This document shows positions 4,273 to 61,897 of a stretch of 64,000 bases of DNA, piece after piece. The stretch covers positions 39,998-103,997 of the forward strand of contig JAUZRK010000001.1 in assembly GCA_030950485.1 (NCBI GenBank), given 5' to 3'. The stretch is from Candidatus Dojkabacteria bacterium (GTDB lineage Bacteria; Patescibacteriota; Dojkabacteria; J137). Below the pieces are notes generated by a model. It saw only the letters and a program-made list of their open reading frames with translations, searched no databases and had not been told where the DNA came from. The translations under genes and the position numbers were made by a program. Position 1 is the first letter of the stretch, and the number at the start of each line of letters is the position of its first letter.

Positions 4273-4288
4273 ATTTCTTTTTTAAAAA

Positions 4289-5183: not shown

Positions 5184-5201
5184 AATTTATTATTAGTATT
5201 T

Positions 5202-5600: not shown

Positions 5601-5615
5601 ATATTATATCTTGAA

Positions 5616-33841: not shown

Positions 33842-34112
33842 TTATAAAATCATTAGGGTTCTCAATGTCTGATACATCTGCTATTTTAGAGCTATCTAAA
33901 CATTGAATAATTTGTTGAACTTCGCTAGTGTCATTCCTTCTTAAAATAACTTGCCTTGCTGCAATAATAGAACCTTATAAGTTATTAGATTGGACTATCG
34001 TACCTATTATTAAATCAAGATTAAAATCAAACTGAGGATTAAATTCAATAGTCCTTCCCGTACTAATTATTTGTCTAACTAAATTACTAAACTGTATCAT
34101 TTTAAAATTTCT

Positions 34113-34141
34113 AAAAAATAAAAAAACACCCTTTCGGGTGC
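34113..34141 (-). terminator. Rho-independent terminator downstream of the minus-strand yerC-like gene (CACCC-TTTC-GGGTG with U-tract on minus strand)
   Basis: Hairpin 34127-34140 preceded on the plus strand by A14 (T-run on the minus strand). Confidence 0.6.
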
Positions 34142-34254
34142 TTCATAAAATTTATTCGTTCAGCTACACCCAATAAAAATTGAGCTGCCACCAAGTTTTA
34201 GAAATTAGTTTAGAAAAGTTCATAGAAGAATGATACTATACTAGTCTGCTAGTA

Positions 34255-34515
34255 TCAACTACTTTTTATTATTTTTAATTCACCATTTTTTAAAGCCTTT
34301 GATCCCCTTGTTACAGTAGCAACACCTACTCCTAATTTCTTTGCAATATCGTGGTGCTTTTCTCCTTTTAAAATTAATTCAACTATATCTATTCTTTTAG
34401 GAATTTCTTTCATTTCTTTTGCTGTAAGGATTCTTTTTAAGAATTTTGATATTTCTTTTGGATCATTTATCTCTGCTAGGATATCTACTAATTTGTTGAA
34501 ACTTGATTTTTTCAT
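34255..34515 (-). CDS. TrpR-like YerC/YecD-family small DNA-binding protein
   Basis: ..ILTAKEMKEIPKRIDIVELILKGEKHHDIAKKLGVGVATVTRGSKALKNG.. matches the YerC/YecD (Trp-repressor-like) family. 86 aa. Confidence 0.6.
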   Translation of the reverse strand: MKKSSFNKLVDILAEINDPKEISKFLKRILTAKEMKEIPKRIDIVELILKGEKHHDIAKKLGVGVATVTRGSKALKNGELKIIKSS

Positions 34516-34604
34516 TATCTAAATTTAATAGATTAATATATTAAATATTGTGTTGAAGTGATTTAATTGATAATCTTATCTAGTATATAGAGTTTTTACA
34601 GAAA

Positions 34605-36329: not shown

Positions 36330-36406
36330 ATACTATTTAAATTGTAAATTAATTGTAATCATTCTCCTAAATTGATAGTCTGTATTGAGACGTTCACTAA
36401 CGACAT

Positions 36407-38734
36407 ATGAAGAAAAAAAGTAGAAAAATTGTAATTGCAATATTATTAATATTAACTCTTGGTTTAACAGGAGTTTCTGTTTATGTAGGACTTAATCTAC
36501 AAACTAGCGAAGCCCCAGAAGATTCAGCAGCAGGATGTTGGTGTACGGGATCAAATGAATGCCCTAGTGGTTACAGCTGGCAAGGCTCTGGCTCTGGCTG
36601 GTGTAGTGCTCCATTAGGCTGCTGTAATGCTGGAGGTGGCGGTTCGGCTGGAGGTGGAAGTACTGGAGGAGGGACACCTTCTACAGGAAGTTCTGACGGT
36701 TCTGCTTGTACATTCGGTAATAACTCTACTTGCGGTAACGTTTGTTGTTCATGTGGTAAGTGTGGGGGTGTTACAAAGACTTGTAATCAGATATGTGGAT
36801 CTTCAAGTGCAGGTGGAAGTAATCAATGTGAGACAGATACAGGAAGACCTGTAAATTGTGCTTGTAATAATGGTTCGCAGTGTTCATCTGGGAATTGTTC
36901 TGGTGGTACTTGTAAAAATGCTATTGACCCTTGTTCTGAGACTTCTGGAAGACCAAATGGTTGCTCTTGCAGTTCAGGATCTCAATGTTCAACGGATAAT
37001 TGCTCTGGAGGATCTTGTAAAACAACAGACAATACTGGAGGTGGTTCAACAGGTGGAGGACTAGGAGTTGGTGATGCTTGTACATTAGGAGGAGCTAGCT
37101 GTCCAACAGGATCGGCTTGTACACCGAATCAAAATGGAAACAATGTATGTAATGCTATTGATGGTTCAGGATTAGTAGATGGAACAAACCTAACTTACAA
37201 CCAGTGCGTTGCAAGTGGTTCTACTTGCGGTGGTAATTATATTGCATTTAACTGTCCTAATGGATTTGGAGACCAATGTTTTGAAAATGAATTAAGAACT
37301 ACTTCTTTATCTGCTGCTACTTCGCATATGAATGGTTGCGGGCAAGTTGACACAGTATTCCAAGGTGGTTCTTGTAATGATCGTTTATGCGGTGGATTTG
37401 TTATTTCAAAAACAAACTGTGGAGGAGGCGGTGGTGGTGGAACTGTAGACCCTGCTGGACCAGTTTGTGGTAATGGAGTAAAAGAAAGTGGTGAGCAATG
37501 TGATGATGGTAATACAAATAATAACGATAGCTGTAATAATAGTTGTAAAACTGTAGTTCAGCCAGTATGTGGTAATGGTCTTATGGAAAGCGGTGAAGCT
37601 TGTGATGACGGTAACAATAATAATGCTGATAGTTGTAATAATAATTGTCAGATTGTAGACGCAATTAGCTGTGGAGATGGCGTTATGGAAGGTGATGAGC
37701 AATGCGATGACGGTAATAACGTAAACAATGATGGGTGTAGTGCAACTTGTACTTTAGAGCAGTTTCAATGCGGGGAGCCATGTTCAGTAGATGCTCAGTG
37801 TCCAAATGGCCATTCTTGTCTAGATGGAATATGTACATTAGATACTTGTACAGCACAAACATGTACAAATGGTTGCCCTAACTCTTGTGGTAATGGTGTT
37901 TTAGAAACAGGAGAACAGTGTGATGATGGGAATAATACAAATGGAGATGGATGTAGCGCTACTTGTACACTAGAGGCAATAGATCCTCTTTGTGGTGACG
38001 GTAATCTTGACCCTGGAGAAGAATGCGATAATGGTACAGGCAATGGAGCTGTTTGTACTCCAACATATGGAAATAATTGTCAGTTCTGTTCTCTTAACTG
38101 TTCTCAGTTAGAAATTGAAGGACCTAGCTGTGGTAATGGAACAGTTGAAAGTATGGAGCAATGTGATCCCTTAGCAACACCTAATGGCTGCGCAGCATCT
38201 TCAACATGTACTAGCTCTTGTATTTGTGAACCTGTGACTGGTCCACAATGTGGTGATACCTGTGGATCAAATCTAGATTGTCCAAATAATCATTCATGTA
38301 TTTCTGGTAAATGTACACTTAATGGATGTACCGATGGAAACTGTGTTAATGGTTGTTTCCCACTATGTGGAGGACCATGTACCTCAAATAAAGACTGTCC
38401 AAATGATCACACTTGTAATTTAATAACTAATCGTTGTGTATTAAGTGAATGTGCAAATGATCCAACATGTATTAATAATGGATGCTTGCCAAAGACTGCA
38501 ATATTCTCATCTGATGATGGAGTATTCTCTGAAAGTAATAGAAATTTAACTTTTGGGTTAATGATTATGGCTACTGCTCTATTGCTTTATAAGTTTAATT
38601 TCTTTACAAAGATAGGTTTAAATCTTACTGGAAGTAAATATAGATTTGTATTCTCTCCTTTAGATAATGATCTAAAACAAAAAGGATTTGAATATAAAGT
38701 AGAAAAAGACTTAGAAGATAAAGCTAAAGATTAA
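36407..38734 (+). CDS. Cysteine-rich repeat surface protein paralog (775 aa) with the same N-terminal anchor and C-terminal CLPKTA + TM module
   Basis: MKKKSRKIVIAILLILTLGLTGVSVYVGLNLQTSEAPEDS. Gly/Cys-rich N-region. Six or more CG(N/D)G..GE.CD(D/N)GN..(N/D)GDGC repeats. C-terminal ..ECANDPTCINNGCLPKTAIFSSDDG.. + TM + ..KFNFFTK... Confidence 0.6.
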   Translation: MKKKSRKIVIAILLILTLGLTGVSVYVGLNLQTSEAPEDSAAGCWCTGSNECPSGYSWQGSGSGWCSAPLGCCNAGGGGSAGGGSTGGGTPSTGSSDGSACTFGNNSTCGNVCCSCGKCGGVTKTCNQICGSSSAGGSNQCETDTGRPVNCACNNGSQCSSGNCSGGTCKNAIDPCSETSGRPNGCSCSSGSQCSTDNCSGGSCKTTDNTGGGSTGGGLGVGDACTLGGASCPTGSACTPNQNGNNVCNAIDGSGLVDGTNLTYNQCVASGSTCGGNYIAFNCPNGFGDQCFENELRTTSLSAATSHMNGCGQVDTVFQGGSCNDRLCGGFVISKTNCGGGGGGGTVDPAGPVCGNGVKESGEQCDDGNTNNNDSCNNSCKTVVQPVCGNGLMESGEACDDGNNNNADSCNNNCQIVDAISCGDGVMEGDEQCDDGNNVNNDGCSATCTLEQFQCGEPCSVDAQCPNGHSCLDGICTLDTCTAQTCTNGCPNSCGNGVLETGEQCDDGNNTNGDGCSATCTLEAIDPLCGDGNLDPGEECDNGTGNGAVCTPTYGNNCQFCSLNCSQLEIEGPSCGNGTVESMEQCDPLATPNGCAASSTCTSSCICEPVTGPQCGDTCGSNLDCPNNHSCISGKCTLNGCTDGNCVNGCFPLCGGPCTSNKDCPNDHTCNLITNRCVLSECANDPTCINNGCLPKTAIFSSDDGVFSESNRNLTFGLMIMATALLLYKFNFFTKIGLNLTGSKYRFVFSPLDNDLKQKGFEYKVEKDLEDKAKD

Positions 38735-38739
38735 CAACT

Positions 38740-38976
38740 TTAAGGTAGTTCTATTCTAGGTTCTTCTAGATCCATCATTTGCATTAGCAACTTGTATCTT
38801 ATAAGAAAATCTTCTATATCGATAGATTCCCATTCTTCGGGTGCCTGACCCCTAAATAGAGCTGAACTAATATAATTTGAATCTCTTAACCTTAATGGGT
38901 TCATTATTTTTCTATATTTAACCCTTGCATCTTTCATACTAGTTCCTTCTTTTTTTGCTGCTACAATATTGTTCAT
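38740..38976 (-). CDS. Small hypothetical protein (78 aa)
   Basis: Complete ORF; unknown. Confidence 0.25.
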   Translation of the reverse strand: MNNIVAAKKEGTSMKDARVKYRKIMNPLRLRDSNYISSALFRGQAPEEWESIDIEDFLIRYKLLMQMMDLEEPRIELP

Positions 38977-39161
38977 ACTTCTATTATTAGCATCCCCATA
39001 TTCCTTAGAATTATCTATTAGATAATTACTTACCTATGATAGTCTTTGAAGCAAATCCGATCTAGTACCTTCTTCTAGCTTACTTAGAGAATCATTAATA
39101 TAAGTTTCAATAATTCTATAACTATTAAGATTATTAATAAGAGTCTTAGTGCCCTCTTTAT

Positions 39162-39587
39162 CTATAAAAAAACTTGATTATCTATTAGAGTAATATGTGC
39201 AGAATAGCTTAAGACCGATCTTAGTGTATCTTCTTGATTCATCGTTATAAGATCAGGTAGTTTTAACAGTGTATTTATAGCAGCATAAGCGAGAAAGAAT
39301 TCGTTTTTGAAAACTTCAACAGAACTTAATAAAGAAATTCCTAAAGGCATATGCCTCTTCTCCATTGCCTTGAAATAGTAACCATCATTTTTTGATTCCT
39401 CATCTATCTGTTGTAAGTGACCAATTATATCTGCAGTTATGTCCCCGTTAGCATCAATATTAAGCATCTCTACAACTTTTAGTATTACTACTTGTGAACT
39501 TCCTTGTGCATATTTTTCTGTCGTAATAACCTTCAGATCTAGGCCTTCAGGGTTTAGATAATCATCTCCCAATTCATCTATTAACAT
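39162..39587 (-). CDS. Hypothetical protein (141 aa)
   Basis: Complete ORF; unknown. Confidence 0.3.
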   Translation of the reverse strand: MLIDELGDDYLNPEGLDLKVITTEKYAQGSSQVVILKVVEMLNIDANGDITADIIGHLQQIDEESKNDGYYFKAMEKRHMPLGISLLSSVEVFKNEFFLAYAAINTLLKLPDLITMNQEDTLRSVLSYSAHITLIDNQVFL

Positions 39588-39769
39588 ACTTACATAATAT
39601 TAATATTATTTTGTCTAGATATTTAGACTGGGGATTTTATCACAACCAATAACGTTATCCGATACTGGCGACGTAATTAAGCTATCTACTTATATGTCTT
39701 ATTCTTTGTGTTAAGTGATTAAAGATAGGGCTTTTGCCTAGGCACAGTAAAAGCTAATATACTACTTCT

Positions 39770-40375
39770 CTACCCTACTATTTGTTTTAAATATTTAATC
39801 TGACTGATTAGAATCAACAAAGAGTTTCTTGGGCCTAATATTAAGTAGTTTTGACCAGAAGCATTGTGTATTCGTTCTAATTCTAACTTAGTTGGATCTA
39901 AAAGTTCTTTAAATTTCGAATTTACTTTTTCGCTCGCTCTAGATTTTAATTCGTAGTTCCCATCCTCATCAATTGTAAATAGACAAAAAACATCATCGCC
40001 TTTAGTATAATTAAGATATTGAACCTTCATACTGCTGACTACTATTTCTAATTTTTCATGTCTATTTGTAATATTTACGAGAGGTAGTTTTATAGTAGAT
40101 CTATCTATCTCTGCAACTGACATTATTGATATAGTAATAAGTGGATGCGGCAGCGATTGGTCTTTAGTTATAACAAGCTCGTACTGCTGTTTGAAAAGTA
40201 TGTCTTCAAACATAATAACTATGTTTGTATCGCTTTTAATATCAACATTAAATTGAATATCTCTACCCACGATTGCTTCGTCCCAAATATCTAATATATC
40301 TTCTGCAAATGCTGGATATAAGTTTAACTCTTTATCGTAGAAAGGTCCTTTTTCTGTTTACTCTTCGATATTGTT
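39770..40375 (-). CDS. Hypothetical protein; N-terminus apparently split by a frameshift at an A5 run (MADNKTISKSKQ.. in another frame upstream of 40270)
   Basis: ORF 39770..40270 continues upstream without a stop to about 40340 in one frame. An ATG ORF (MADNKTISKSKQKKDLSTIKS*) in the adjacent frame overlaps it at acagaaaaagg. Confidence 0.3.
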
Positions 40376-40432
40376 TTATTATCAGCCATAAATCAGTTTT
40401 GAATATATTTAGACATTATTTAAGTAATAAAA

Positions 40433-40786
40433 TTACTTGTTAGATTTATCCAATTGCTCTCTCAACTCTTCATTCTCTTTCTGTAAAGCTTCGATAGCCT
40501 TAAAAGTTAGTTCATTAAATTTCTGTTGCCTCATACTCTGTTTCTCAACAATATTAAAAGTAATATTTCTTATCCTTGTAAGAAATAATCTCTTAGCTTT
40601 GCTGATTAAACCTGCTCTTTTAGGTGGTTCATAAGAATACAAAGAAGACAAAGTATCTTTCGAGTTTTCAAGAGCTGGGATGATAAGTTCAGAAAGTATT
40701 TCTGAATTAGTTTTTTTTGCAGCTACAGAAGTACCTTCATCTTCTAAAACTTTGTTAACTCTTTCTAATAATCCATTATCACTCAT
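40433..40786 (-). CDS. Coiled-coil hypothetical protein (117 aa)
   Basis: Heptad-like charged sequence; unknown function. Confidence 0.3.
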   Translation of the reverse strand: MSDNGLLERVNKVLEDEGTSVAAKKTNSEILSELIIPALENSKDTLSSLYSYEPPKRAGLISKAKRLFLTRIRNITFNIVEKQSMRQQKFNELTFKAIEALQKENEELREQLDKSNK

Positions 40787-40788
40787 GT

Positions 40789-41979
40789 TTAATTTCTATA
40801 AATTGGATTAATTATCATCTCTTCAGCTCCTAGTGCAAAATCTAATTCTAAAAATGAATTATCTTTATACTGATACCATTTTGAGTCATTATCAAAATCT
40901 ATTTTTATTAAAAGTTCATATTGCCCCAAACTAGTACATTCAATAGTTTCTTCATCGAGTTCTAGTGGTATTTCACTAGCAAATATCTTCTGTTCAATAA
41001 TATTGCCTGCAATATTGAAATAAACAAACTTAAGCTCATTTACTTCATTATTTAAAGTATATCCGATGAAATCATCATTTGAGATTGAGCAAGCAGTCTT
41101 AAAATTGTTCTCTATAAAATTGTCTATCGCTAAATCGCTACCTATATAAGTTTTAAACATTGAACTTATAAATGGGTTTATCTTAGATTCAAAAATCACT
41201 CTTTCAGAATCCTTACTGAAGACTAAATTTGTAGGTACTAAGTTTATATCACCTTCACTTTTAATTCCCCCTAAATCCCAAGCCACATTCCCTTTTGTAG
41301 TCAACACCCTTATTACATAACTTATTGTATCTTTTACAACAAGGTACTGACCATTTTCAGTTATTTTAATAATATCAGCATTTATAATTTGTTCTTTTAA
41401 TATTTGATTATCAGCTTCTAGATCAAGACTTTGTAACCATATTTCATTTTCTTCTTCACCTTGTGTAAAAAGTATATTTTTATCTCCACTCCACTCATAG
41501 CTTTGAATTCCTCTTCCAACTTCGTTAAAATTTGAAACTTGTTCCCATGACTCATTTTTAAATGAATATATCCATAGATCGTATTGTTCTATAGTCTGAG
41601 TCTCTCCCTCAGCATCTTCATAACTAAAATCATATGGCTTAAGTGCGGATAGATATAATCCATCATTAGAAAATTGTAGATTTTTCCAATCATCTCTTTC
41701 TAAATTAATATCTATTTCCTTACTATTTTTATCAATAGTCATGATTGTCTTGTCAGCAGTAATTACAGCATACTTTATATCTTCTGTCGTAAATTGATCC
41801 AACGGATCCTCAACTTGATTATTACCATCATCTGGATTACTAGTGGGTTTAATATCAGTTATTTGACCTGAATCTGAAGATTCTGAGTTAGGAGTAGAAG
41901 AATTTAGCGCAACAAAAGCTACTCCAAATATGAGCATTAAAATAACTAGGACTATAAATATAAATTTCTTAGATAACAT
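40789..41979 (-). CDS. Secreted/membrane-anchored hypothetical protein (396 aa, N-terminal TM/signal)
   Basis: MLSKKFIFIVLVILMLIFGVAFVALNSS.. followed by a Ser/Asp-rich linker and a large beta-rich region. Overlaps the upstream methyltransferase gene by 11 nt. Confidence 0.4.
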   Translation of the reverse strand: MLSKKFIFIVLVILMLIFGVAFVALNSSTPNSESSDSGQITDIKPTSNPDDGNNQVEDPLDQFTTEDIKYAVITADKTIMTIDKNSKEIDINLERDDWKNLQFSNDGLYLSALKPYDFSYEDAEGETQTIEQYDLWIYSFKNESWEQVSNFNEVGRGIQSYEWSGDKNILFTQGEEENEIWLQSLDLEADNQILKEQIINADIIKITENGQYLVVKDTISYVIRVLTTKGNVAWDLGGIKSEGDINLVPTNLVFSKDSERVIFESKINPFISSMFKTYIGSDLAIDNFIENNFKTACSISNDDFIGYTLNNEVNELKFVYFNIAGNIIEQKIFASEIPLELDEETIECTSLGQYELLIKIDFDNDSKWYQYKDNSFLELDFALGAEEMIINPIYRN

Positions 41980-42667
41980 CTTTTTTATAAATCTTATATA
42001 AGTTCATTCTATCTTCTTTCCCATCAGAAAAAAAGCTGTCTACTAGTAATAAGTTACTTTCCGACTCTATTAATCTTATTTCATCTTCATTCGAAAAGTG
42101 ACAAAATCTGTAAGTTGAGTTATCTTTTCCAAAAGTTAACAAGTAATCATTTTCTCCAAGACTAACCTCATTGTAAGCGATATTAGATTCCTCTAGTTTA
42201 TGGGATTCTACATACCCTTCAATAGCAGCAAATTGCCAGAATGTATTTATAAATATTCCCATACTATGCAATAAAATATTTACTGAATTATATACGTTCT
42301 CTCTTGCTTTGTTATTTTCCAGGTGATGCATAACTCCAAAACAAACAATCAGATCATACTCATCATTTAGTTTTCTAGACCATTCTGAATCATTTAAATC
42401 TATTTCTATAAATTTTTTACTAGCATTTGTATTTTTAGTATTATCAATTGCAATTTCTAAAAGTTCCTTTGAGTTATCAATACCTGTATAACTTTTAACA
42501 TCAATATGTTTTTCTTCTAGAAAATCCAAGAATCTTCCATTCCCACAACCTATATCAAGGATCGATAAAGGTTTATTATCTATATATTCAGTTAGTCTAC
42601 CCCACCCTTTCCAAGGATATGCTCTGGAATTAGAGAATTTTTTTGCGTGTGTAGTATAAAGATTCAT
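41969..42667 (-). CDS. Class I SAM-dependent methyltransferase
   Basis: Motif I ..ILDIGCGNGRFLDFL.. and an acidic motif II (..DLIVCFGVMHHL..). Confidence 0.65.
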   Translation of the reverse strand: MNLYTTHAKKFSNSRAYPWKGWGRLTEYIDNKPLSILDIGCGNGRFLDFLEEKHIDVKSYTGIDNSKELLEIAIDNTKNTNASKKFIEIDLNDSEWSRKLNDEYDLIVCFGVMHHLENNKARENVYNSVNILLHSMGIFINTFWQFAAIEGYVESHKLEESNIAYNEVSLGENDYLLTFGKDNSTYRFCHFSNEDEIRLIESESNLLLVDSFFSDGKEDRMNLYKIYKKDVI

Positions 42668-42726
42668 TAGATGATATAAATATTTTATTCAATTATAATG
42701 CATTAGCTTTTTAAATAATAAAAGAT

Positions 42727-44118
42727 TTGACCAAACCATATTCTAAAATTTTTGAACTTAAGTTTTTTTCTCACCTTATATTAATCTTACTTAGTTTTGG
42801 GATTTTAACTATACCCCTTGTTACTGGTTTTAATAATTATACTCTAGGAAGAGGTTGGGATTTGCCAAAGGTTAATTTATTAATGCAATTATTAGTATTA
42901 CTTAGTTTTTTAATACTAGTGCAAAAAACTTACTTAATCTCTATTAATAGACTGAACTTTAGTAGGGCTAAGAAGATTCTTCTGCCTATAGTTCTTTTAA
43001 CCTACCTATTTATAGTAACAATTAATTCTAGTTGGACTAGAAATTTAGATCCAGATACTGAATTAAATAGTATTTATAAGTTCCTCTTTCATAATATTCT
43101 TGGCAAGACTGAACTAATCGAAGTAAATCAATCTTTAGTCGGAAATGCATTTAGAGAGACTGGATTTGTGTTTTATTTTATCTTATTGGTATCTCTATTT
43201 CTAATCTCATCTTATATAAACAAAGATACTATTAAATATATATTTTTAGCTTTTATAACCTCTTCAATTTTACAGTCATTTATTGGGCTAAATCAGTTTT
43301 ATAGACTCTACCAAAATGACCCAGAAAATATTTTTCTTGGAGAAAGAGTTTATGGAAGCTTTGGGCAGGCAAATTTTTTTGCAGGACATATTTTTATTGG
43401 CTTCTTTATTTCGGCATTCTTATTAACTAATTATAAGCAAAGGTCAAAGCTTAAAAATATAATTCTTTCAATTTCAACTAGCTTAATACTTTTAACACTA
43501 ATACTGTCTTTTTCAATTTGGATTTATGTAATCATGGTTCTATCCTTACTATTTATTCTAATTTATAAATACTTTGATAAAAAATACTATAGGAAAGTAT
43601 TGGCATTATTTTTTATTTTATTAGCAATCCTAGCAGTTCCATTAGGTTCCTTATTTGTTAAATATAATAGTGAGTATGAACATAGAGTAACTATTTGGGA
43701 GGATGTTATTAGAGTTTATATTCAAAACCCAATTGATGGTAAAGATGATATTAAACTAATGTTATTTGGTTCAGGTTTTGATACTATGGGCGAAGAATTT
43801 AGAGAATGGAATAAAATTCCTGGGAACTACACAGATAGGTCGCATAATATAATTTTTGATACAATTGCTTTTACTGGAATTTTTGGATTAGTAGTACTAG
43901 CTTCCGGACTGATATACATTTTTCTTAGAAGAAGTAGTTTTAATAGTGAACATCAGTATTTGCTTTTTACACTTTTCTTCTTACTATTAGCTAGAAACTT
44001 AGTTCATACTTACTCTGCTGTAAACTTATTTGAGTTATTCTTGTTTGGTATAATTTTACTGAATAGTGGTTTATACACTACGAAAGATCTGCAATCTGAT
44101 AAAGAGATTGCAGCTTAA
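42727..44118 (+). CDS. Polytopic integral membrane protein (10+ TM; possibly O-antigen ligase/polymerase-like)
   Basis: 463 aa, almost entirely hydrophobic helices with one larger loop. Family not confirmed. Confidence 0.35.
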   Translation: MTKPYSKIFELKFFSHLILILLSFGILTIPLVTGFNNYTLGRGWDLPKVNLLMQLLVLLSFLILVQKTYLISINRLNFSRAKKILLPIVLLTYLFIVTINSSWTRNLDPDTELNSIYKFLFHNILGKTELIEVNQSLVGNAFRETGFVFYFILLVSLFLISSYINKDTIKYIFLAFITSSILQSFIGLNQFYRLYQNDPENIFLGERVYGSFGQANFFAGHIFIGFFISAFLLTNYKQRSKLKNIILSISTSLILLTLILSFSIWIYVIMVLSLLFILIYKYFDKKYYRKVLALFFILLAILAVPLGSLFVKYNSEYEHRVTIWEDVIRVYIQNPIDGKDDIKLMLFGSGFDTMGEEFREWNKIPGNYTDRSHNIIFDTIAFTGIFGLVVLASGLIYIFLRRSSFNSEHQYLLFTLFFLLLARNLVHTYSAVNLFELFLFGIILLNSGLYTTKDLQSDKEIAA

Positions 44119-45973
44119 ATCCTCTTTTATCATAATACTCTCTTGTCCCAATAGCTGAGATTACAGCCAGTTTACTAAATCCATTCTCTTTCGCAATCTC
44201 TTTAGATTTCTCGATTAATTTTGAACCTAAGCCTAAATGTTGAGCTTCACCTTTTGAACCTTTTGACAGTTCTAGACTTGGACCGTAAACATGTACCTCA
44301 CGAATAATTGCAGAATCTTTTAACTCATAAGATACACTTCTCATGCTTTGTCCCTCCCCTTGAGGGGAGGTTAGGTGGGGTGAATCACCCCGGTCTTTAC
44401 GTGGAACTGATAATCTCAAAAAACCAGCAATCTCTCTCTCCTTCGTTATGTATTGTAAAAAGTACTCAGTACTTACAGTTGTAGAGAATTTAATAATGTC
44501 TAATTCAAGATCATCAAAAGTAACCTTTTTTCCTTTAATTTCTCGAGCTCTGATATTTGGATTAGCTCTACTCTCTTTCTTTAATTTATATTCAACTACT
44601 TGTCTTAAATTTGTAGTTTTATTTCCAGCCTCAATTTCCGTTGAAGGTATATCTCTAATTACTCTAGTTATTCTAGTATACTCGGGTGCAGTCTCCATCA
44701 TCTCTGATATTAGTTTAATCAAGGTTTCATTATCATATGGTTCGTATTTGCCTTCTTCATATAAATCACTAAGCTCAGTGTTTTTGATAATTGATGTTGG
44801 ATAAATTTTCACTTCGTCAGGTTTATAATTTTCAGACTCATATAACTCATGCCAAGATTTCAAATCTATTTCTGGTCTTGCACCGTAAAGATTTGGCATC
44901 ATATGCGCATGGATTTTAAACCCAGCTTTACGAAGCAATGCAAATGCGTTCGCTGTGTGAACCTTATGTTCTCCTCTTTTATTTAAATCGCTTATATTGT
45001 CGTCTAAAACTTGGATTCCAAGTTGTACCTTAGTAGCTCCGAGTCTTCTCATTCTATAAACCTCTTTTTCAGTTATTAAATCGGGTCTAGTTTCTAAAAC
45101 TAAACCAACACATCTTATTTTCCTAATAGCATTAGTTTTATGTAAATCTTCTAATTCTTTCCATAAATCATCAACTGAAGTTTTACGATCGTATGTTTCT
45201 AAAGCTACATATTTATTTTCAAAACCTTCCTTAAACTCTTTAGTTCTTACAAGCTTATTATATGAATCATCTCCAATCTCATCTCTTAATTTTTCATTAT
45301 AATCCTTTGATAAATATTCTTTCATCTCAAGAGCACTTAGAGTATCTTGTTTATCGTCAACATCGCTACTTATTTCAAATTCCTGCATAGCTCTAAAACA
45401 TTCTTTAATAAACCAAACTTGATACTTTTCTGGATAAGATGACCAAGATCCACCAAGAATTAGTAGTTCAATCTTTTCAGTTGGATGACCAATATTTTTT
45501 AATGCTTTTAGTCTATTGAAAGTCTGTAGATATGGGCTAAATTTATTAGCTAAAGCCCTCTGCGCTCCTGGCTCTGTCGCTATATAACTCTTTGGCATTC
45601 TTACATCATTTGGACAGAAGACACACTTCCCAGGACACATCCAAGGTTTTGTGAAAACAGTTACAGTAGTTACTCCTGAAATAGTTCTAGTTGGTTTCAT
45701 TTTAATAAAACCTTTTAGCTTTTGAAAACTGGTATTATCTTTTACTTCTTTCTCTAACATCTCTATTCCTTGAATAAGTTGGTCTCTAGAAAAGAGTTCT
45801 GATTTATCTTTCGGATTATTTTTTAATATTCGTTCAATTTTTTGATTAAACTTTATTCTATTTTTTTGTGTTATTTTTCTAAATTCGTCAGTGTCTATCA
45901 AATCTAGGATTTGATTTAATATTATAGTTAGCTCAGTTTTATATACCTCAGGACTGAATTGATATTTTTTCAT
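44078..45973 (-). CDS. elp3: Elp3-like radical-SAM/GNAT tRNA modification enzyme (elongator protein 3 homolog)
   Basis: Radical SAM Cx3Cx2C (..TKPWMCPGKCVFCPNDV..), central Elp3 core, C-terminal GNAT (..REVHVYGPSL..HLGLGSKLIEKSKEIAKENGFSKLAVISAIGTREYYDKRGF). 631 aa. Carries an in-frame GC-rich palindromic insertion (44343..44402). Confidence 0.8.
   Translation of the reverse strand: MKKYQFSPEVYKTELTIILNQILDLIDTDEFRKITQKNRIKFNQKIERILKNNPKDKSELFSRDQLIQGIEMLEKEVKDNTSFQKLKGFIKMKPTRTISGVTTVTVFTKPWMCPGKCVFCPNDVRMPKSYIATEPGAQRALANKFSPYLQTFNRLKALKNIGHPTEKIELLILGGSWSSYPEKYQVWFIKECFRAMQEFEISSDVDDKQDTLSALEMKEYLSKDYNEKLRDEIGDDSYNKLVRTKEFKEGFENKYVALETYDRKTSVDDLWKELEDLHKTNAIRKIRCVGLVLETRPDLITEKEVYRMRRLGATKVQLGIQVLDDNISDLNKRGEHKVHTANAFALLRKAGFKIHAHMMPNLYGARPEIDLKSWHELYESENYKPDEVKIYPTSIIKNTELSDLYEEGKYEPYDNETLIKLISEMMETAPEYTRITRVIRDIPSTEIEAGNKTTNLRQVVEYKLKKESRANPNIRAREIKGKKVTFDDLELDIIKFSTTVSTEYFLQYITKEREIAGFLRLSVPRKDRGDSPHLTSPQGEGQSMRSVSYELKDSAIIREVHVYGPSLELSKGSKGEAQHLGLGSKLIEKSKEIAKENGFSKLAVISAIGTREYYDKRGFKLQSLYQIADLS
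44350..44393 (+). repeat. GC-rich palindromic element (CCTCCCCTTGAGGGGAGG + GGGGTGAATCACCCC) inserted in-frame within elp3
   Basis: Two adjacent palindromes in an otherwise AT-rich gene, encoding ..DRGDSPHLTSPQGEGQSMRS... Related to copies at 56454..56492 and 59749..59796. Confidence 0.7.
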
Positions 45974-46034
45974 CCAGTAATTATACCACTTGTAAGACTA
46001 CTTAAAGAAACCGTAGAAATTTAACTTCAAATGA

Positions 46035-46697
46035 TTAGTAAATGAAATCAGTCCAATCAATGTGATTAATAGAACTATACTTGTAGTCTGTTGGATAATC
46101 GTATCCCCATTTTTCAGCGTGTTTCAAATGATTATTTATTGTATATAAGTATTTAACATTAAATTCTTTCTCATTACGAATTACTCTATAGTAAAAAGAC
46201 TTTTGCCATTTGAATTTTGGATCATTTGATTTTGGTATATCTTTTCGATGTCTTGATATGTAATCGTGTATTTGTTCTAGGAGATTTGGTAGAGAGGCAT
46301 TTGTATGATATTGCCGTGAACGTAGGGGAAGAAACGTTTCTTCCCCTACGTTGCCTCTGGCGTTACTCCCTGCCATAGGCCCATTCGAATCAAACATCAA
46401 TTTATTAAACCCCATAATCGTATTACAGCTATGCGAAAACTGTTTCTTAATAGAAAACATAATTTTTGAAATATCAGACTTTTCTGATGGCTTAATAATT
46501 AGATGTAGATGATCATACAATATATTAAATGCATACAACTCGAATCCATGAATCTTTTTTGATAATTTCAATTGCATAATTAATAAGTCAGCGAACACGT
46601 TGTTTTTAAAATATGGATAATTATTTTGTGTTTTTGTTGTTATAAAATATATGGCATGATCTACATAAAACCTTTCTGTTGTTTTGTATTTGTTCAT
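46035..46697 (-). mobile_element. REP-associated tyrosine transposase (RAYT; IS200/IS605 TnpA-like HUH Y1 transposase) with an internal REP insertion
   Basis: HUH motif ..YDHLHLIIKP.. and RAYT C-terminal motif ..KWQKSFYYRVIRNEKEF... A perfect 30-bp palindrome CGTAGGGGAAGAAACGTTTCTTCCCCTACG (46321..46350) lies in-frame inside the gene (..GSNARGNVGEETFLPLRSRQYH..). Confidence 0.7.
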
Positions 46698-46784
46698 ACA
46701 TAATGATATACAATATAACGGGTTTTATAGATCGCAAAGAAATCAATATGAAAAGTTTTAGCAAGGAATTAAATCAAAAATTAA

Positions 46785-46818
46785 AGAGTAGGTGAAGAAA
46801 CATTTCTTCACCTACTCT
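46785..46818. repeat. REP-like palindrome AGAGTAGGTGAAGAAA-CA-TTTCTTCACCTACTCT, sister of the RAYT-internal REP; probably also the terminator of the helicase gene
   Basis: 16-bp perfect arms, same GAAGAAAC core as the 46321..46350 palindrome. T-rich on the minus strand downstream of the 46840..48468 stop. Confidence 0.7.
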
Positions 46819-46839
46819 TTTTAAATTTACCTTCTATTC

Positions 46840-55939: not shown

Positions 55940-56041
55940 TAAAAATAAAATACCCCCAAACTAAAATTAAGTTTGAGGGTGTAAAAAAGTACCACTTTCG
56001 TGATACTTATAAATTAAAAAAAATTGCAAAAGTATCACCCT

Positions 56042-56341
56042 CTAATGAGAGTGATGATGTGAATTCAATCTATCTAAAATTAATCTATATCCGTCCATTC
56101 CATTTTTCAAGAATCTATTAACTCTTGTAACAGTAGCAATACTAACGCCAGCCTCTGTTGCAACCTGTCTCTGTGGCTTACCTTTATCTAACTCCTTTGC
56201 GACTTCAAATCTTGATGAAAATTCTTCAATTTCTTTCTCAGTCAAAAGATCTCGCATAAAGTTAGCAGCCTCATCAACTGTCTTTAGTTTCAAGATTGCT
56301 TCAAATAAGTCCTCTGATTTTTTATTTTTCCATTTTATCAT
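56042..56341 (-). CDS. TrpR-like YerC/YecD-family small DNA-binding protein (second copy; His-rich C-terminus)
   Basis: ..LLTEKEIEEFSSRFEVAKELDKGKPQRQVATEAGVSIATVTRVNRFLKNG.. ending NSHHHSH. Confidence 0.55.
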   Translation of the reverse strand: MIKWKNKKSEDLFEAILKLKTVDEAANFMRDLLTEKEIEEFSSRFEVAKELDKGKPQRQVATEAGVSIATVTRVNRFLKNGMDGYRLILDRLNSHHHSH

Positions 56342-56453
56342 AGCGTAATATTACACTAATACATGTGATTTTGTCAATGACAACTTGAGTTTCTTACTCA
56401 AGAGCCATACCTGCAAAAAGTCAGGCGACATAATACAATGAAATGCACACTGC

Positions 56454-56492
56454 CTTTCTCCCCCTTGAGGGGGATTTAAGGGGGTGACCCTG
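56454..56492 (+). repeat. GC-rich palindromic element (CTTTCTCCCCCTTGAGGGGGATTTAAGGGGGTGACCCTG)
   Basis: Core perfect palindrome TCCCCCTTGAGGGGGA at 56459-56474. Near-identical copy at 59749..59796; degenerate copy inside elp3. Confidence 0.75.
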
Positions 56493-56751
56493 TGAGTGAT
56501 GATATGAAGATCTTCCCATAAAGGAATACACTGCATCACATTAAAAACTTATTTTCTTTTGTTAAGTTTTGCAGTAATAACGACGGGCAATGATGTATCA
56601 GCTTCGGCAGGACTAACTCCGCCAAAGAGAGGGTAATTCAATTTGAAACCAAGTTAGTTACTACAAGTTACAACAAGAGTAAATCAGATTTAACTCTTCC
56701 AGTATAAAGAATTTAAAAAATTAGCAATCTAATACACCTAACATACTCGTT

Positions 56752-57471
56752 TTAATCCCTCCTATTATTTGAACTAACAAGCATTACAAAATAAGCTAAC
56801 TGACCTAGTGATTGAACAAGACCAGCAAAGTAAGTAAGCGCTGCAGCTCTTAGTACAACCTTCGCTCCGCCATAGTGACTAGGGGCTATAAGACCGTGCT
56901 TTTCAATTAACTTCATAGCTCTTCTACTAGCATCTAGTTCAACTGGTAATGTTACTAATGAAAATACAGTGACAGTAGAAAAAAGAATTATCCCAACCCA
57001 AGCAAGTCCGCTTGAAGCAATCATTAATCCAATCATTATTAATACATACCCTACTCCTGAACCGAAGCTTACAACTGGTACTATTGTCGATCTTAATTTA
57101 AATAAACTTTGACCAACTTGCTTTTGCTGAACGTGACCAAATTCGTGTGCGACAACTGCAATATTTGCAACTGAGTCATTTACTGCGTTATCAGAAGATA
57201 AATTTACTAAATTATTTTTTGGGTCAAAGTAATCATTGAGTTGCCCTTCTGTTGTTTGAAAACTAACGCCAAAATTTCCTGAATCATTTATAAGTTTTGC
57301 AGCCTGCATTCCAGTCATAGACGTACCTGCAGAAATTTTTGAAAATTTCCCATAACTTCTTTTAAGTAAGAACTGTGCATATAGCCCTATTATCAATCCT
57401 GGTAATACGAATAGTAAATATAGAAACATTATTTTAATTTTAATAAATACATTACTTAAATATTTTATCAT
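56752..57471 (-). CDS. YugP-family membrane zinc metallopeptidase
   Basis: N-terminal TM, ..VVAHEFGHVQQ.. HExxH, C-terminal TM helices. Typical Zn_peptidase_2 (YugP) layout. Confidence 0.65.
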   Translation of the reverse strand: MIKYLSNVFIKIKIMFLYLLFVLPGLIIGLYAQFLLKRSYGKFSKISAGTSMTGMQAAKLINDSGNFGVSFQTTEGQLNDYFDPKNNLVNLSSDNAVNDSVANIAVVAHEFGHVQQKQVGQSLFKLRSTIVPVVSFGSGVGYVLIMIGLMIASSGLAWVGIILFSTVTVFSLVTLPVELDASRRAMKLIEKHGLIAPSHYGGAKVVLRAAALTYFAGLVQSLGQLAYFVMLVSSNNRRD

Positions 57472-57569
57472 GATCTAAAAAAATACATAGCAAGACAATT
57501 ACAAACACTAAATATTAAAATGGCTTTAGTTTTACCTTAGACTTTTAGCTTTTGACTTAACCTTGATTC

Positions 57570-59671
57570 ATGTACAATTTTAGTAAATATACTCATATAA
57601 TGTCTATTCTTTCATCAAAATCAAAAGTAAAAGAATATATTCTTCAAAAAGTAGTAATTAAGATTGCTGTTCCTAAAGACAATGAGAAACAGTCTGAGTC
57701 TGCAGTTCAACTTTTCCAAGCTATTCATGGAACTTTACGTAATAAAATGATTTTGGAAGATCATTTTAGTTTAGAACTTATTGGAAATGGTGACGGAGTA
57801 TTTTTTATTGTTGTATGCGAAGAGCGATACTATAAATTCGTTGAAAGCCAAATATACGCTGCTTATCCCGATTCTGAAATTACTAGGATTAATGATTATG
57901 TAAATTTAGATATTTTGAAAAGTTTTTCAATAGAATCAAGTAAACTTACTCTAAAGAAGCCTAGTTATTTGCCAATAAAAACATATGATCGATTTAATAC
58001 TGATCCTATTGCTCCTTTAATATCAGTTATTTCAAAACTACCCGCTACTCAAAGCGCTTGGATACAGATTTTAATTCGTCCTGTAAGTAATTCAATTAGT
58101 GAATTAGGTAAAAGATATATTAAAAGGATTTCAAAAACTGTAAATGAACAAGGGAAAGAAGTTAGTTTAAGCTTAGATAATGATCAAAGAGAAGAAATTA
58201 GACAAATAGAAAATAGAAGTAATTCTGATGGATTTCAATTCTTAATTAGAATTCTTACAATTGCTGGTACTACTTCAGATGCTAATTATGCACTTGAAGA
58301 TATTGAAGCAAGTTTCAATCAATTCGATAGTTCGAAATTAAATGGGTTTAAAGAAAAAATAGATAAGAAAGGCTTTCTAGGTGAACTTATAGGAAACGAA
58401 GATTTAACTATCGAAAGTCGTTATTTAAATAGATTTTTAGATGACAATGAAAAAGGAATCTTAAATACTCAAGAAACTGCATCTGTATTTCATTTACCAA
58501 ATAAATCAGTAAAAATTACGCAACTAAACTGGTCTAGTAGTACAAAGCTTCAAGTTCCAAATGACCTACCAGTAATAAATACTCAGATCGACTTAAACCA
58601 TAATAATTTTGATATTAAATATTCTTCCGAATTTTTACATACTGGAGTTAGATACTTTGGTCTTACTGATTACAGAAATAACCACTTCCCTTTTGGAATA
58701 AAAAGAGAAGATCGAAGAAGACATATGTATCTTCTTGGAAAAACAGGAACTGGAAAGTCATTGTTCATTAAAAACATGGTTTTTGATGATTTATATGATG
58801 GTGAAGGATTTGCAGTAATAGATCCTCATGGCGATTTAGTAGAAGAGATTTTAGAGCTAATTCCTGAGCATAGAAAAAATGATGTTGTCTATCTTGACCC
58901 TTCAGATATCGATAATCCTATTGGTTTAAATATGCTTGATATTAAAGAAGGAGAATCAAAAGAGCTTTTAGCAGATGGTATTGTTTCTGTTTTTATTAAA
59001 TTATTTGGTCATTCTTGGGGACCGAGATTACAACATATTCTTCATAATACTGTACTAACACTACTCCACTGCCAAAATGTTTCATTATTGGCGGTTCAAC
59101 GGATATTACTAGATGGGAATTATAGAAAATTCTTATTAAATCATTACTATCTTACTTAGTTCAGACATTGTTATATCTTCCTCTTGATCAACAACGTGAT
59201 TTCTATCTTTATGTCGATGAATTCCAGAATTTTGCTACTACTACTTTTATTAAAATACTCTCTGAAGCGTGTAAATATGCCCTTAATTTGCTTGTAACTC
59301 ATCAATATATAGATCAGATAGAACCTAGTATTCAAGACGCAATTCTTGGTAATGTAGGGACTTTAGTCAACTATGTTGTTGGTCCTAAGGATGCCAGTAG
59401 ATTAGAGAGAGAATATACTCCGCATCTCTCTTCTGAAGATCTAGTAAATCAAGAGAAATTCAACTTTGTTATTAAAGAAACAATTGATGGCGCTCAGTCC
59501 TATCCTTTTACCGGGGAGCTAATGTTAATGGATCTTCATAAGTCTAATTTAAAGGAAGAGGTTAAACATCTTTCTAGAGCTAACTACTCTACTAAAAGAG
59601 ATATTGTAGAGGAAAAACTTCATAAATGGGCTACTAATAAATATAACGATAAGGGGAATCTTATTTCCTAA
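57570..59671 (+). pseudogene. VirD4/TraG/TraD-like (type IV coupling protein family) AAA ATPase, split by a frameshift near 59140-59165
   Basis: Walker A ..MYLLGKTGTGKSLF.., ..FAVIDPHGDL... Second ORF (TTG start at 59168) carries Walker B ..FYLYVDEFQNFA.. and a TraD/TraG C-terminal-like ..LNLLVTHQYIDQI..AILGNVGTLVNYVVGPKDASRL... The frames differ by one nucleotide. Confidence 0.55.
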
Positions 59672-59748
59672 TTTTGGCGACATACTAGATATATCCGTTA
59701 GCTGCGTGGTTAATGAGTCATAGCAACAATGAAGGCTAAAAAAGACTG

Positions 59749-59796
59749 TCTTTCTCCCCCTAGAGGGGGATTTAAGGGGGTGATCCTGTTCGGGGG
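59749..59796 (+). repeat. GC-rich palindromic element (CTTTCTCCCCCTAGAGGGGGATTTAAGGGGGTGATCCTGTTCGGGGGG)
   Basis: Core TCCCCCTAGAGGGGGA at 59755-59770. About 90% identical to 56454..56492. Confidence 0.75.
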
Positions 59797-59843
59797 GAAG
59801 TAAAAACTAAGTTAATAATAGAGGAAAAAGTGCAAATAGTCGT

Positions 59844-59877
59844 AAAAAAAGAGCAGATTTTACTCTGCTCTTTTTTA
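59844..59877. terminator. Bidirectional rho-independent terminator (A7-AGAGCAG..CTGCTCT-T6)
   Basis: Stem flanked by an A-run and a T-run, between convergent genes. Confidence 0.65.
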
Positions 59878-59893
59878 ATATCTTAACTTTATA

Positions 59894-60535
59894 TTACGCT
59901 GCTATTGCAATAGGGTCATCACTGAATCTTAATTTTTCTTGTTCAGCCTTAATTCTATCATTTAATTGAGGAACTACAGCAGAGTTTATCTTACCCCTTA
60001 AGGCTTGTAATTCATTAAGTCCATTTGCCTCGGTAACAAAAATTGTATCTCTTCTAATTTCTAGAGTATTTATTGCTGTCTTAACAGATACAGTTTGTTC
60101 TTCTAAAGCTTCTAATTCTGCAATTAAATCATTAATCTTAATTGGATCATATATACTCTGTGCCACTTTTAATATTTCACTTGCTTTTTCATTTGCCGAA
60201 TTCTGTGCCTCTGAAATTACTGAATCAGTAATATCTCCTCTTACTCCGTCTATGTATCCGATTCCACTTTCAATTCTTTCAATTTCACTTTCATCGCCTG
60301 CTTTTACTGCTGCCAAAGTTACTTCATCAACATTAAATCTTGTTCTAGCAGTCTTTTCAATAGTTTCACCAGTTTTGCTATCAATATAAGAGCTAACTAC
60401 TTTAGTCTCTTCTGCCTCAGGAATGGGTGCAACACTTTTTTCTGAAGCAATTGCTCCAAATAAGTTAAAAATTTGTATCTTTTCTTCTGAAGTATACTTA
60501 TTGAATAGCGCAGGAGTATTAATTGTATCTCTCAA
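59894..60535 (-). CDS. Hypothetical protein (213 aa)
   Basis: Complete ORF; no domain recognised. Confidence 0.3.
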   Translation of the reverse strand: MRDTINTPALFNKYTSEEKIQIFNLFGAIASEKSVAPIPEAEETKVVSSYIDSKTGETIEKTARTRFNVDEVTLAAVKAGDESEIERIESGIGYIDGVRGDITDSVISEAQNSANEKASEILKVAQSIYDPIKINDLIAELEALEEQTVSVKTAINTLEIRRDTIFVTEANGLNELQALRGKINSAVVPQLNDRIKAEQEKLRFSDDPIAIAA

Positions 60536-60610
60536 CTCATTAAAATCCGGATTTTCTAAAAGCTTATCAAAAGGTACAAAAGCTGCTTCTAACGAGGCAT
60601 CTGTAGTACT

Positions 60611-61897
60611 CTAATTTCTAAAGACTGCAGTTATCCACTTGTGACTTCTCTTTATATGTCCAATTTTAACTACTTTAAGATCAGCTTTTATAGCTCGATC
60701 TCTCAGTTCATCTTCGCTAAACAAATGATAAAATCTTTCAACATCTCCATATTCTTTATTGTCATTTTTCATTTCTTCACCCTCTCCTTCTCTAACAATC
60801 AGATAAAAAATTCCATCCTCAACCAGAGCTTTTGCAATGTTTGCAAAAACCTTATCAAGCTTGTCGCCTTCAATGTGGTGAAGCGCTCCTCTACTCCAAA
60901 TTCCTTTATATATATTCTCACCTAAATCTCTTTCAACAACATCACAATACTCTACATCAACTCCTGGATTCTCATATTGAGCAATTTCTACCATTCTCTT
61001 AGAGATATCTAATGCTTTCATTGAATATTTTTCTGAAAGATATTTTGTATCAAACCCTGGACCGCAACCAATATCTAGAACTCTAGCTGGTGGATTAACC
61101 ATTGTAATAAACTCATCTAATTGTTCTTGAGCTACTAATTTACCAGCATATGTTTTGTGATAACTAGATGTATGTGCCTCATATGTTTCAGTTGTTCTTT
61201 TCATCCTAGGAGACAGTATAAATGCAGTTTCGTCACCTGTTATGTTCTCAAGCTTACAATGTTGAATCTTTTGCTCATGGTCAGTTAAATGAGCTAGTAC
61301 TTCTTCAGGTGTAGTTGCTTTATAAAGAACTCCAAGTTCCGTCTCGTCTATATATAAAGCCTTTTGAAAAGCTTCTATCAAGTCTTCCCAGAAATCTCCA
61401 AATAATATTACAGGCTTGTGACATCCATAATACAGCTTAGACAAAGCCCAAACTAATCCAAATTCTGATACGGTACCTGTTCCACCCTTACAAACTATAT
61501 ATGCATCTCCTCTTTCGATTAGTCCAAAAGTTCGATTTACATAATTAGAAGAGGCTGATGATTTATCAGTAACATTTGCTAAATTCTTCCCTTCAAAGAA
61601 AGAAGCAAGTTTAGGTTCCCAGTAAACTGCCTGTGTTTCTCCACCAACGCTCTCAGCCCCATCAGTTGCTGCTTTCATTAGCCCTGGACCTCCACCATCA
61701 ACTACTGTGTAACCTCTCTCAGCTAATGCTTTAGAAAGCTCCCACACTGATTTATAAATCGGGTCTCCTTCAGGTATTGCGGAGTCTCCAAAAAAGGTGA
61801 TGTTTTGAATTATTCTATCTCTATCTTTATGTTTAATTGTACTATCATCAGCAGAATCAGCACTATCTTTTCTAGGTAATTTTATATTAGTTGGCAC
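60611..61897 (-). CDS. LOG-family (TIGR00730 Rossmann nucleotide-binding) domain fused to a class I SAM-dependent methyltransferase
   Basis: N-terminal ..VVDGGGPGLMKAATDGA.. and ..CKGGTGTVSEFGLVW.. (PGGxGTxxE LOG motif). C-terminal ..RVLDIGCGPGFDTKYL.. motif I. 428 aa. Confidence 0.65.
   Translation of the reverse strand: MPTNIKLPRKDSADSADDSTIKHKDRDRIIQNITFFGDSAIPEGDPIYKSVWELSKALAERGYTVVDGGGPGLMKAATDGAESVGGETQAVYWEPKLASFFEGKNLANVTDKSSASSNYVNRTFGLIERGDAYIVCKGGTGTVSEFGLVWALSKLYYGCHKPVILFGDFWEDLIEAFQKALYIDETELGVLYKATTPEEVLAHLTDHEQKIQHCKLENITGDETAFILSPRMKRTTETYEAHTSSYHKTYAGKLVAQEQLDEFITMVNPPARVLDIGCGPGFDTKYLSEKYSMKALDISKRMVEIAQYENPGVDVEYCDVVERDLGENIYKGIWSRGALHHIEGDKLDKVFANIAKALVEDGIFYLIVREGEGEEMKNDNKEYGDVERFYHLFSEDELRDRAIKADLKVVKIGHIKRSHKWITAVFRN

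Follow-up and report, generated by a model that had tools for sequence, protein, structure and literature searches.

A very short GC-rich hairpin element with three copies in a Dojkabacteria genome, one of them inserted in frame in elp3

Short palindromic repeats are already a known class of genetic element. Repetitive extragenic palindromic sequences (REPs) are imperfect palindromes of ~20-40 nt with GTAG (GT[AG]G) at the foot of the hairpin; they flank the gene of their REP-associated tyrosine transposase (RAYT), often as inverted pairs, and are present in tens to hundreds of extragenic copies per genome. Miniature inverted-repeat transposable elements, or MITEs, carry terminal inverted repeats matching a parent insertion sequence (IS), are bounded by target-site duplications and are usually 100-400 bp long. 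The prokaryotic MITEs, which include ERIC, Correia, Nezha and others, are non-autonomous, short, structured and occasionally intragenic (PMC10969869). Rickettsia palindromic elements (RPEs) are selfish palindromic repeats of ~100-150 bp whose host genome is reduced and AT-rich; genes for conserved proteins take them up in frame, so that the proteins gain a peptide segment (PMC10969869). In the AT-rich mitochondrial DNA of yeast, GC42 is a mobile, GC-rich hairpin element of 42 nt, and the GC clusters, like the double-hairpin elements of fungal mitochondrial DNA, are mobile units of ~40-50 nt with conserved stems and variable loops, for which a transposase of their own is not known (PMC4478555 and references therein). 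In the literature searched, no description was found of short palindromic repeats in bacteria of the Candidate Phyla Radiation. Here, a GC-rich hairpin element is described in a 64,000-nt stretch of the genome of a Candidatus Dojkabacteria bacterium (assembly GCA_030950485.1, contig JAUZRK010000001.1, positions 39,998 to 103,997), referred to as the window, in which GC content is 31.6% over the 64 kb. The stretch belongs to a metagenome-assembled genome, and both its Zn-peptidase and its Elp3 protein show 100% identity to NCBI entries assigned to Candidatus Dojkabacteria.

Copies of the element have reached at least three sites in this genome, among them a permissive surface loop of Elp3, where the reading frame stays intact. 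With moderate confidence, the three copies, A, B and C, are taken to represent a family of non-autonomous, probably selfish insertion elements, each a very short GC-rich hairpin unit of 45-48 nt. The 40-nt pattern CTTTCTCCCCCTWGAGGGGGATTTAAGGGGGTGAYCCTGT has two exact matches in the window, at 56454-56493 and 59750-59789, both on the + strand, and no match in 100 dinucleotide-preserving shuffles. A repeat finder stretches the pair to 45 nt, with 42 of the 45 positions identical (93%) and in the same orientation, so that copy A (ACTGCCTTTCTCCCCCTTGAGGGGGATTTAAGGGGGTGACCCTGT, intergenic) occupies 56449-56493 and copy B, which lies between convergent genes, 59745-59789. These are direct repeats 3296 bp apart. 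The similarity stops sharply at the edges of the 45-nt unit; the flanks beyond align unconvincingly, and upstream of A and B there is only a faint extra similarity, AGTCA...ACAATGAA. One of the three differences between the copies is in the hairpin loop (T/A) and the other two are in the flanks of the hairpin, leaving the stem unchanged.

Copy C (GCTTTGTCCCTCCCCTTGAGGGGAGGTTAGGTGGGGTGAATCACCCCG, 44345-44392, + strand) is diverged, is 48 nt long and lies inside elp3 (44078-45973, - strand). The TTGA loop is common to copies A and C, GGGGTGA stands ~12 nt past the hairpin in both, and the local alignment of the two scores 29, compared to a maximum of 26 in 20 shuffles. All three copies share one orientation, on the + strand. 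Stop codons in all three frames of the + orientation were considered as the cause of this, and are present in A alone, not in B or C. The first-pass annotation had proposed a GC-rich palindromic family in an AT-rich background, with two copies in the same orientation and a degenerate one in elp3, and each of these proposals holds. It had also placed a copy where B lies, which is correct, but the end that it gave, 59796, overshoots the shared part by 7 nt. A match with three mismatches at 26852, tried as the elp3 copy, is at chance level.

On the - strand, copy C reads as a 48-nt in-frame insertion, RGDSPHLTSPQGEGQS, which contributes 16 residues to a variable loop of Elp3. When the 60 closest Elp3 proteins are aligned, the insertion falls between FLRLSxP and IREVHVYG. 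Forty-five of the 60 homologues have no insertion of any kind at this site, and the solved bacterial Elp3 5L7J shows gaps across the stretch. Most homologues lack the in-frame stretch that copy C adds, which is direct evidence of past insertion. The 48-nt insertion as defined from the protein also agrees in length and position with the 45-nt unit defined from A and B.

GC-rich hairpin insertions with one pyrimidine-only and one purine-only arm (Py/Pu hairpins) are found in some other Dojkabacteria Elp3 genes as well, in two variable loops. The loop that houses copy C is occupied at L027:2736-2777 (GACCTCACCCCGA-CCCTCTCC-TATA-GGAGAGGG-GGAAG) and at L028:2504-2542, and an N-terminal variable loop is occupied at L030:1129-1172 (CACCCTCACCC-TAA-CCCTCTCC-CAAAA-GGAGAGGG-GAAAC), L031:10196-10237 (CATCACCTACCC-TAA-CCCTCTC-TCAA-AGGAGGG-AATTC) and L028:1116-1162. 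A TCACC or CCACCCC box is located upstream, in the coding orientation, in four of these five foreign insertions, with L028:1116-1162 the exception. The stems vary between family members yet stay complementary, and the members are read in at least two reading frames, as independent insertions would give. One build (TCACC box, TAA, Py/Pu hairpin, GAAA) thus recurs in two Elp3 loops of other Dojkabacteria, so that insertion has occurred repeatedly. A Py/Pu GC hairpin, TCTCCC-TCGGG-AGGGGAGA on the coding strand, was also seen at L028:6945-6963 in a class I aminoacyl-tRNA synthetase gene on a different Dojkabacteria contig, and may be a further in-frame insertion.

The variation of the stems between genomes could instead be attributed to palindromes that form locally and repeatedly, by template switching or hairpin-forming replication errors in GC-rich runs, with no moving element at all. 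A poly-C/poly-G hairpin followed by a further G-run recurs in unrelated phyla, as described below, and such a recurrence could mirror a common mutational process. This origin is considered quite improbable, given that A and B share 45 nt that include non-palindromic flanks, and that unrelated sites and genomes have the TCACC box, TAA spacer and GAAA tail in common. The GC-rich runs that would seed such errors are also nearly absent from these genomes, which have a GC content of 31-34%.

The anatomy of the hairpin is shared by all copies. In copy A, hairpin 1 (56459-56474, TCCCCC-TTGA-GGGGGA) has a stem of 6 bp with a pyrimidine-only 5' arm; the hairpin of copy B (59755-59770, TCCCCC-TAGA-GGGGGA) differs from it in the loop alone, and that of copy C (44353-44370, CCTCCCC-TTGA-GGGGAGG) has a stem of 7 bp. 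In every copy the 5' arm contains only pyrimidines and the 3' arm only purines, and the stem is followed by a spacer and GGGGTGA. As read directly from the sequences, two stem positions are altered on both sides from A to C, one from C-G to T-A and one from T-A to C-G, so that pairing is kept. Copy C has a second, perfect hairpin (44377-44391, GGGGTG-AAT-CACCCC), with GGGGTGA as part of one half, of which A and B retain only a remnant, GGGTGACCC and GGTGATCC, respectively. Read on the - strand, from which elp3 is encoded, the unit begins with TCACC(C/T)CC, a box rich in C, and continues with a short spacer, usually with TAA at its end, the Py/Pu hairpin and a GAAA-like tail. For A, B and C, the build in the coding orientation is TCACCCCC-TTAAA-TCCCCC-TCAA-GGGGGA-GAAAGG, and in copy C the C-rich box is itself one half of the second small hairpin. 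The ends of the unit, ACTGC... and ...CCTGT, are not inverted repeats of each other; CAG is present at both ends of A and B, but within the shared 45-nt unit.

Hairpins of this type are scarce. Only four loci in the 64 kb (A, B, C and 32386) have a perfect hairpin whose 5' arm is all pyrimidine, and a relaxed Py/Pu scan that allows one mismatch adds a fifth locus at 31860, with ~0.13 matches expected per shuffle. No Py/Pu GC hairpins were found in the Dojkabacteria loci L023, L026 and L029. The hairpins at 31860-31880 and 32386-32407, which are GC-rich and consist of a C-rich box and then a hairpin, resemble the A/B/C family in build. The first is at the 3' end of a DUF559 endonuclease-like gene (31831-32238, - strand, Pfam E = 1.6e-33). 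This gene is flanked by a direct repeat of ~170 nt (31605-31774 and 32315-32483, 88-90% identical) and has trpA (30916-31617) on one side and, on the other, a trpB broken into two open reading frames (ORFs; 32527-32817 and 32912-33529).

A stable GC hairpin followed by TTT on the + strand could serve as a cis-acting RNA signal, whether as a terminator or attenuator, as an mRNA-stabilising 3' hairpin or as a ribosome-binding or anti-Shine-Dalgarno module, and copy B is located in the 3' untranslated region of a gene for a coupling-protein-like (T4CP/HerA-like) ATPase. The C-run is able to pair with either of two G-runs, which would make for a possible switch. In addition, the 3' half of the element includes a Shine-Dalgarno-like box on the + strand, TAAGGGGGTGACC in copy A (56477-56489) and TAAGGGGGTGATC in copy B (59773-59785), which match TAAGGAGGTGATC at 11 and 12 of 13 positions, respectively. 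TAAGGAGGTGATC is the full Shine-Dalgarno complement, according to the established consensus of this sequence and of the 16S rRNA 3' end. The - strand of the box resembles that 3' end (GGATCACCcCCTTA). The chance of such a match in a 45-nt element is ~5e-5, by a rough estimate of our own that is uncorrected for the post hoc choice of the motif.

A signal in RNA is nevertheless rather unlikely. The folding energy of the element is unexceptional compared to shuffles (z = -1.9 and -0.9). With Rfam 15 at the gathering threshold, there are no matches in the whole window, and at E <= 10 there are only chance-level matches on 56300-56800, the best of which is Whalefall-1, at 13.8 bits compared to a threshold of 37. 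No tRNA or tmRNA was found in the window by ARAGORN. A scan of 56000-60700 for a terminator consensus, defined as a GC-rich hairpin with a run of at least five T within 8 nt, called neither A nor B, as the stem is trailed by TTT only. Past the Shine-Dalgarno-like box, copy A offers an ORF of 9 codons that starts with GTG and copy B has no start codon, and no conserved translated product was found downstream of the box in either. In the orientation that displays the box, copy A is antisense to both of its neighbours, and copy C and other family members are within coding sequence. In the more tentative reading of a lineage-wide family, given below, the mimicry of the Shine-Dalgarno sequence and the 16S rRNA 3' end would hint that the elements arose from the translation-initiation machinery or interact with it.

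The window also encodes a possible mobilising enzyme. The RAYT-like gene at 46035-46697 encodes a protein of 220 amino acids that matches Pfam Y1_Tnp (E = 1.3e-7) and nearly reaches the cut-off of NCBIfam REP_Tyr_transpos (79.9 compared to 80 bits). Were the element the REP of this tyrosine transposase, the two would form a classical REP/RAYT pair; a hairpin with conserved flanks is the type of substrate used by HUH Y1 enzymes, every copy is on one strand, and copy C is just 1.6 kb from the gene. Several observations make this pairing unlikely. The flanks of the RAYT-like gene (45974-46034 and 46698-46839) hold no copy of the element, with the nearest, C, in another gene, and no link between the copies and the RAYT-like gene was found. 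Neither strand of A, B or C has GTAG beside the hairpin, and there is no Y1_Tnp gene within 10 kb of the other Dojkabacteria element loci.

The GTAG hallmark is found instead in a second set of palindromes, GTAGG[G/T]GAAGAAAC, inside and just upstream of the RAYT-like gene. One, at 46320-46351 inside the RAYT ORF, is a perfect 32-nt palindrome with the halves ACGTAGGGGAAGAAAC and GTTTCTTCCCCTACGT. The other, at 46786-46817 just upstream of the gene, has the form GAGTAGGTGAAGAAAC-A-TTTCTTCACCTACTC and also resembles the terminator of a UvrD-like gene. Their GTAG heads suggest that these palindromes are probably the cognate REPs of the RAYT-like transposase. The A/B/C family lacks such a head and is distinct from the GAAGAAAC palindromes, as had been proposed by the first-pass annotation. 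By its type, the neighbouring RAYT-like Y1 transposase is a candidate for mobilising the element, though its cognate palindromes appear to be different. Exact-product look-up of the RAYT-like protein, and of the YerC-like protein discussed next, returned no record.

The intergenic copies A and B are probably neutral passengers at the 3' ends of genes. Copy A is 259 nt 3' of the stop codon of a Zn-peptidase gene (Zn_peptidase_2) and 108 nt 5' of the start of a YerC/TrpR-like gene, both of which are on the - strand. Copy B is 74 nt after the stop codon of the ORF for the C-terminal part of the T4CP/HerA-like protein (+ strand) and ~55 nt before a canonical bidirectional terminator hairpin (~59850-59880). 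As TCCCCCTNGAGGGGGA is a near-perfect inverted repeat of 16 bp, and as copy A is ~110-150 bp upstream of the YerC/TrpR-like gene, the palindrome might be an operator for a DNA-binding protein such as this adjacent regulator. That role is highly improbable. Copy A is upstream of the predicted promoter of the YerC-like gene, beyond the -35 box, copy B is between convergent genes and copy C is within a coding region. Of the two YerC/TrpR-family genes in the window, at ~34250-34510 and 56042-56341, only the second adjoins a copy, so that the association with regulators or terminators suggested earlier is a weak one.

The ORF track lists a 62-codon ORF on the - strand across copy A (56351-56539), which is a mechanical ORF that overlaps the predicted promoter of the YerC-like gene. 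It has no Pfam match, and the 20-residue stretch over the element has no relative among 5.8 billion proteins. In keeping with the first-pass annotation, it is probably the element plus its flanks and not a gene. In a 99.9% identical sister assembly, the contig L022 (GCA_030949735.1, JAUZSD010000016.1) ends at its position 8920, equivalent to 56462 of the window and thus inside the hairpin of copy A, where its C-run is one base short. Another contig of the same assembly, L033 (equivalent to 33534-43306), ends away from any element, such that the break in L022 may be a coincidence, and it is given no weight.

The proximity of A and B could also reflect a purely local event, in which they are att-like direct repeats or a recombination scar around a 3.3-kb T4CP/HerA-like segment rather than members of a mobile family. 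The repeats are only 3296 bp apart, with the faint AGTCA...ACAATGAA similarity upstream of both, and the T4CP/HerA-like gene between them is split by a stop codon into two ORFs (57570-59159 and 59168-59671) and may be a pseudogene. In the relatives L023 and L025, whose gene order is different as well, this gene is missing beside the Zn-peptidase gene. A local event is unlikely, because the conserved Zn-peptidase gene, a core neighbour of hisS in relatives, lies in the A-B segment too, and because no integrase or recombinase is found between or beside the repeats. It would also leave unaccounted for both the copy in elp3 and the same build in other genomes.

Compared to the systems described at the outset, the element has features of several. 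Like REPs and bacterial interspersed mosaic elements (BIMEs), it is a short imperfect palindrome of a few tens of bases, with a GC stem of 6-7 bp and a 4-nt loop in 45-48 nt; REP copies are mostly at the 3' ends of genes, as are A and B, and a RAYT-like gene is present in the same window. Unlike REPs, it has no GTAG head and no copy at the RAYT gene, one copy is intragenic and the copy number is apparently low. With the prokaryotic MITEs, the element has in common its short, structured and probably non-autonomous nature and an intragenic copy. In contrast to them, its ends form no terminal inverted repeats, and the window contains no IS whose ends would match. The likeness to RPEs is that copy C adds 16 residues in frame, and that the Elp3 insertions of other Dojkabacteria behave alike. 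RPEs, however, encode a conserved peptide, whereas this element is only 45-48 nt long and is read in different frames; there is no sequence relation, and the phylum is different. The element resembles the yeast GC clusters in size, in its contrast in composition to a 31.6% GC genome, in the two-hairpin build of copy C and in an A/B stem that is invariant with one difference in the loop. This is a likeness of behaviour only, with no claim of homology, as GC clusters are organellar, have AG target dinucleotides and belong to sequence families of their own, whereas the element is on a bacterial chromosome. In behaviour, the best-supported comparison would place the element closest to REPs, RPEs and yeast mitochondrial GC clusters. 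Since the features that define REPs, MITEs and RPEs were not found, it is filed under palindromic repeats in general and in no named family.

Sequences similar to the element were also sought in other DNA. The exact 25-nt core has 11 matches in 185,579 species genomes and 10 in the metagenomes of the Joint Genome Institute (JGI), mostly from Bacteroidota, and none in viral contigs. By blastn, the plasmid and phage collections gave only chance-level matches (E >= 0.1). In the Bacteroidetes metagenome-assembled genome (MAG) CAWBQO01, with a GC content of 61-63%, there is a ~90-nt repeat that ends in TCCCCCTTGAGGGGGATTTAAGGGGGTG and has four copies (L002:320-344, L006:6645-6669, L008:3904-3928 and L009:4780-4804). 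A 29-nt core, CACCCCCTTAAATCCCCCTCAAGGGGGAG, is identical in copy A and in the CAWBQO01 repeat, with 8 of the 29 bases not set by the search pattern. On a metagenome contig from an unrelated organism (L014, Ga0265294_10023959), six copies of AAGTCCCCCCTTGGGGGGATTTA(A)GGGGGGGGAAAGACACGGAG (AAGTCCCCCCTTGGGGGGATTTA(A)GGGGGGGG...) lie within 2860-5930, interleaved with other poly-C/poly-G hairpins in a dense repeat family. The poly-C/poly-G repeats of other phyla differ from the element in that their flanks are unrelated and their hosts have a GC content of 43-63%. Rfam gave no meaningful match on 12 foreign loci, including the CAWBQO01 repeat.

Tentatively, the element could belong to a lineage-wide family of ~45-nt units, each with a C-box and a Py/Pu hairpin, in Dojkabacteria and perhaps other Patescibacteria, that has repeatedly colonised intergenic DNA and the surface loops of conserved proteins (Elp3, and possibly DUF559 and an aminoacyl-tRNA synthetase). 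The members were aligned by hand and compared with nhmmer, since MAFFT alignments mis-registered the hairpins. A profile of six hand-aligned members, searched against ~175 kb of Dojkabacteria DNA, recovered only its own members, a circular result that is no evidence of homology.

If A, B and C do belong to a family of non-autonomous hairpin insertion elements, they would spread at the level of DNA by way of the hairpin, which would probably form in single-stranded DNA at the replication fork. Movement would be catalysed in trans by an enzyme that the element does not encode, which is our preferred guess. A number of observations weigh against this interpretation. There are only three copies in the window, two of which are 3.3 kb apart, and no empty site, target-site duplication or terminal inverted repeat can be defined for A, B or C. 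No cognate transposase was identified. There are no Dojkabacteria among the exact-core matches, and the source genome beyond the window is possibly outside those collections; this lack argues against a widespread A/B subtype and is no measure of copy number in this genome. The first-pass description of the family as dispersed and active or recently active gains no support from these scans. When the A/B element was translated in four frames and compared to 5.8 billion proteins, there were seven word candidates, none of which scored. The similarity of members across genomes is short and partly architectural, and the profile of them was aligned by hand. Moreover, the foreign Elp3 loci were picked for having insertions, which biases their frequency, and a single ancestral event with many later losses could account in part for the insertions that share an Elp3 loop.

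Repeats of another kind are present elsewhere in the window. At 35440-38545, two large genes contain many tandem and dispersed repeats of 96-102 nt that encode Cys-rich CGNG...CDDGN units, and the annotation of the sister assembly gives these genes weak or faint Pfam DUF4215 matches.

Bacteria of the Candidate Phyla Radiation have tiny genomes that are presumed to be subject to strong streamlining. Genome-wide confirmation of the family would indicate that selfish hairpin DNA persists even in such reduced genomes, and that conserved proteins are remodelled through its in-frame insertion. It would also mean that the element can interrupt the assembly of metagenomes and give rise to false ORF calls, as at 56351-56539, and would provide a marker for strain typing. 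Should the family prove to be lineage-wide, it would be a bacterial counterpart of the mitochondrial GC clusters and the Rickettsia palindromic elements, and the presence of the 29-nt core in a Bacteroidetes MAG would suggest either transfer from one phylum to another or a mechanism of mobilisation in common. Together, the Shine-Dalgarno-like box and the cross-phylum core pose the concrete question of how elements of this kind, which lack their own transposase, are moved.

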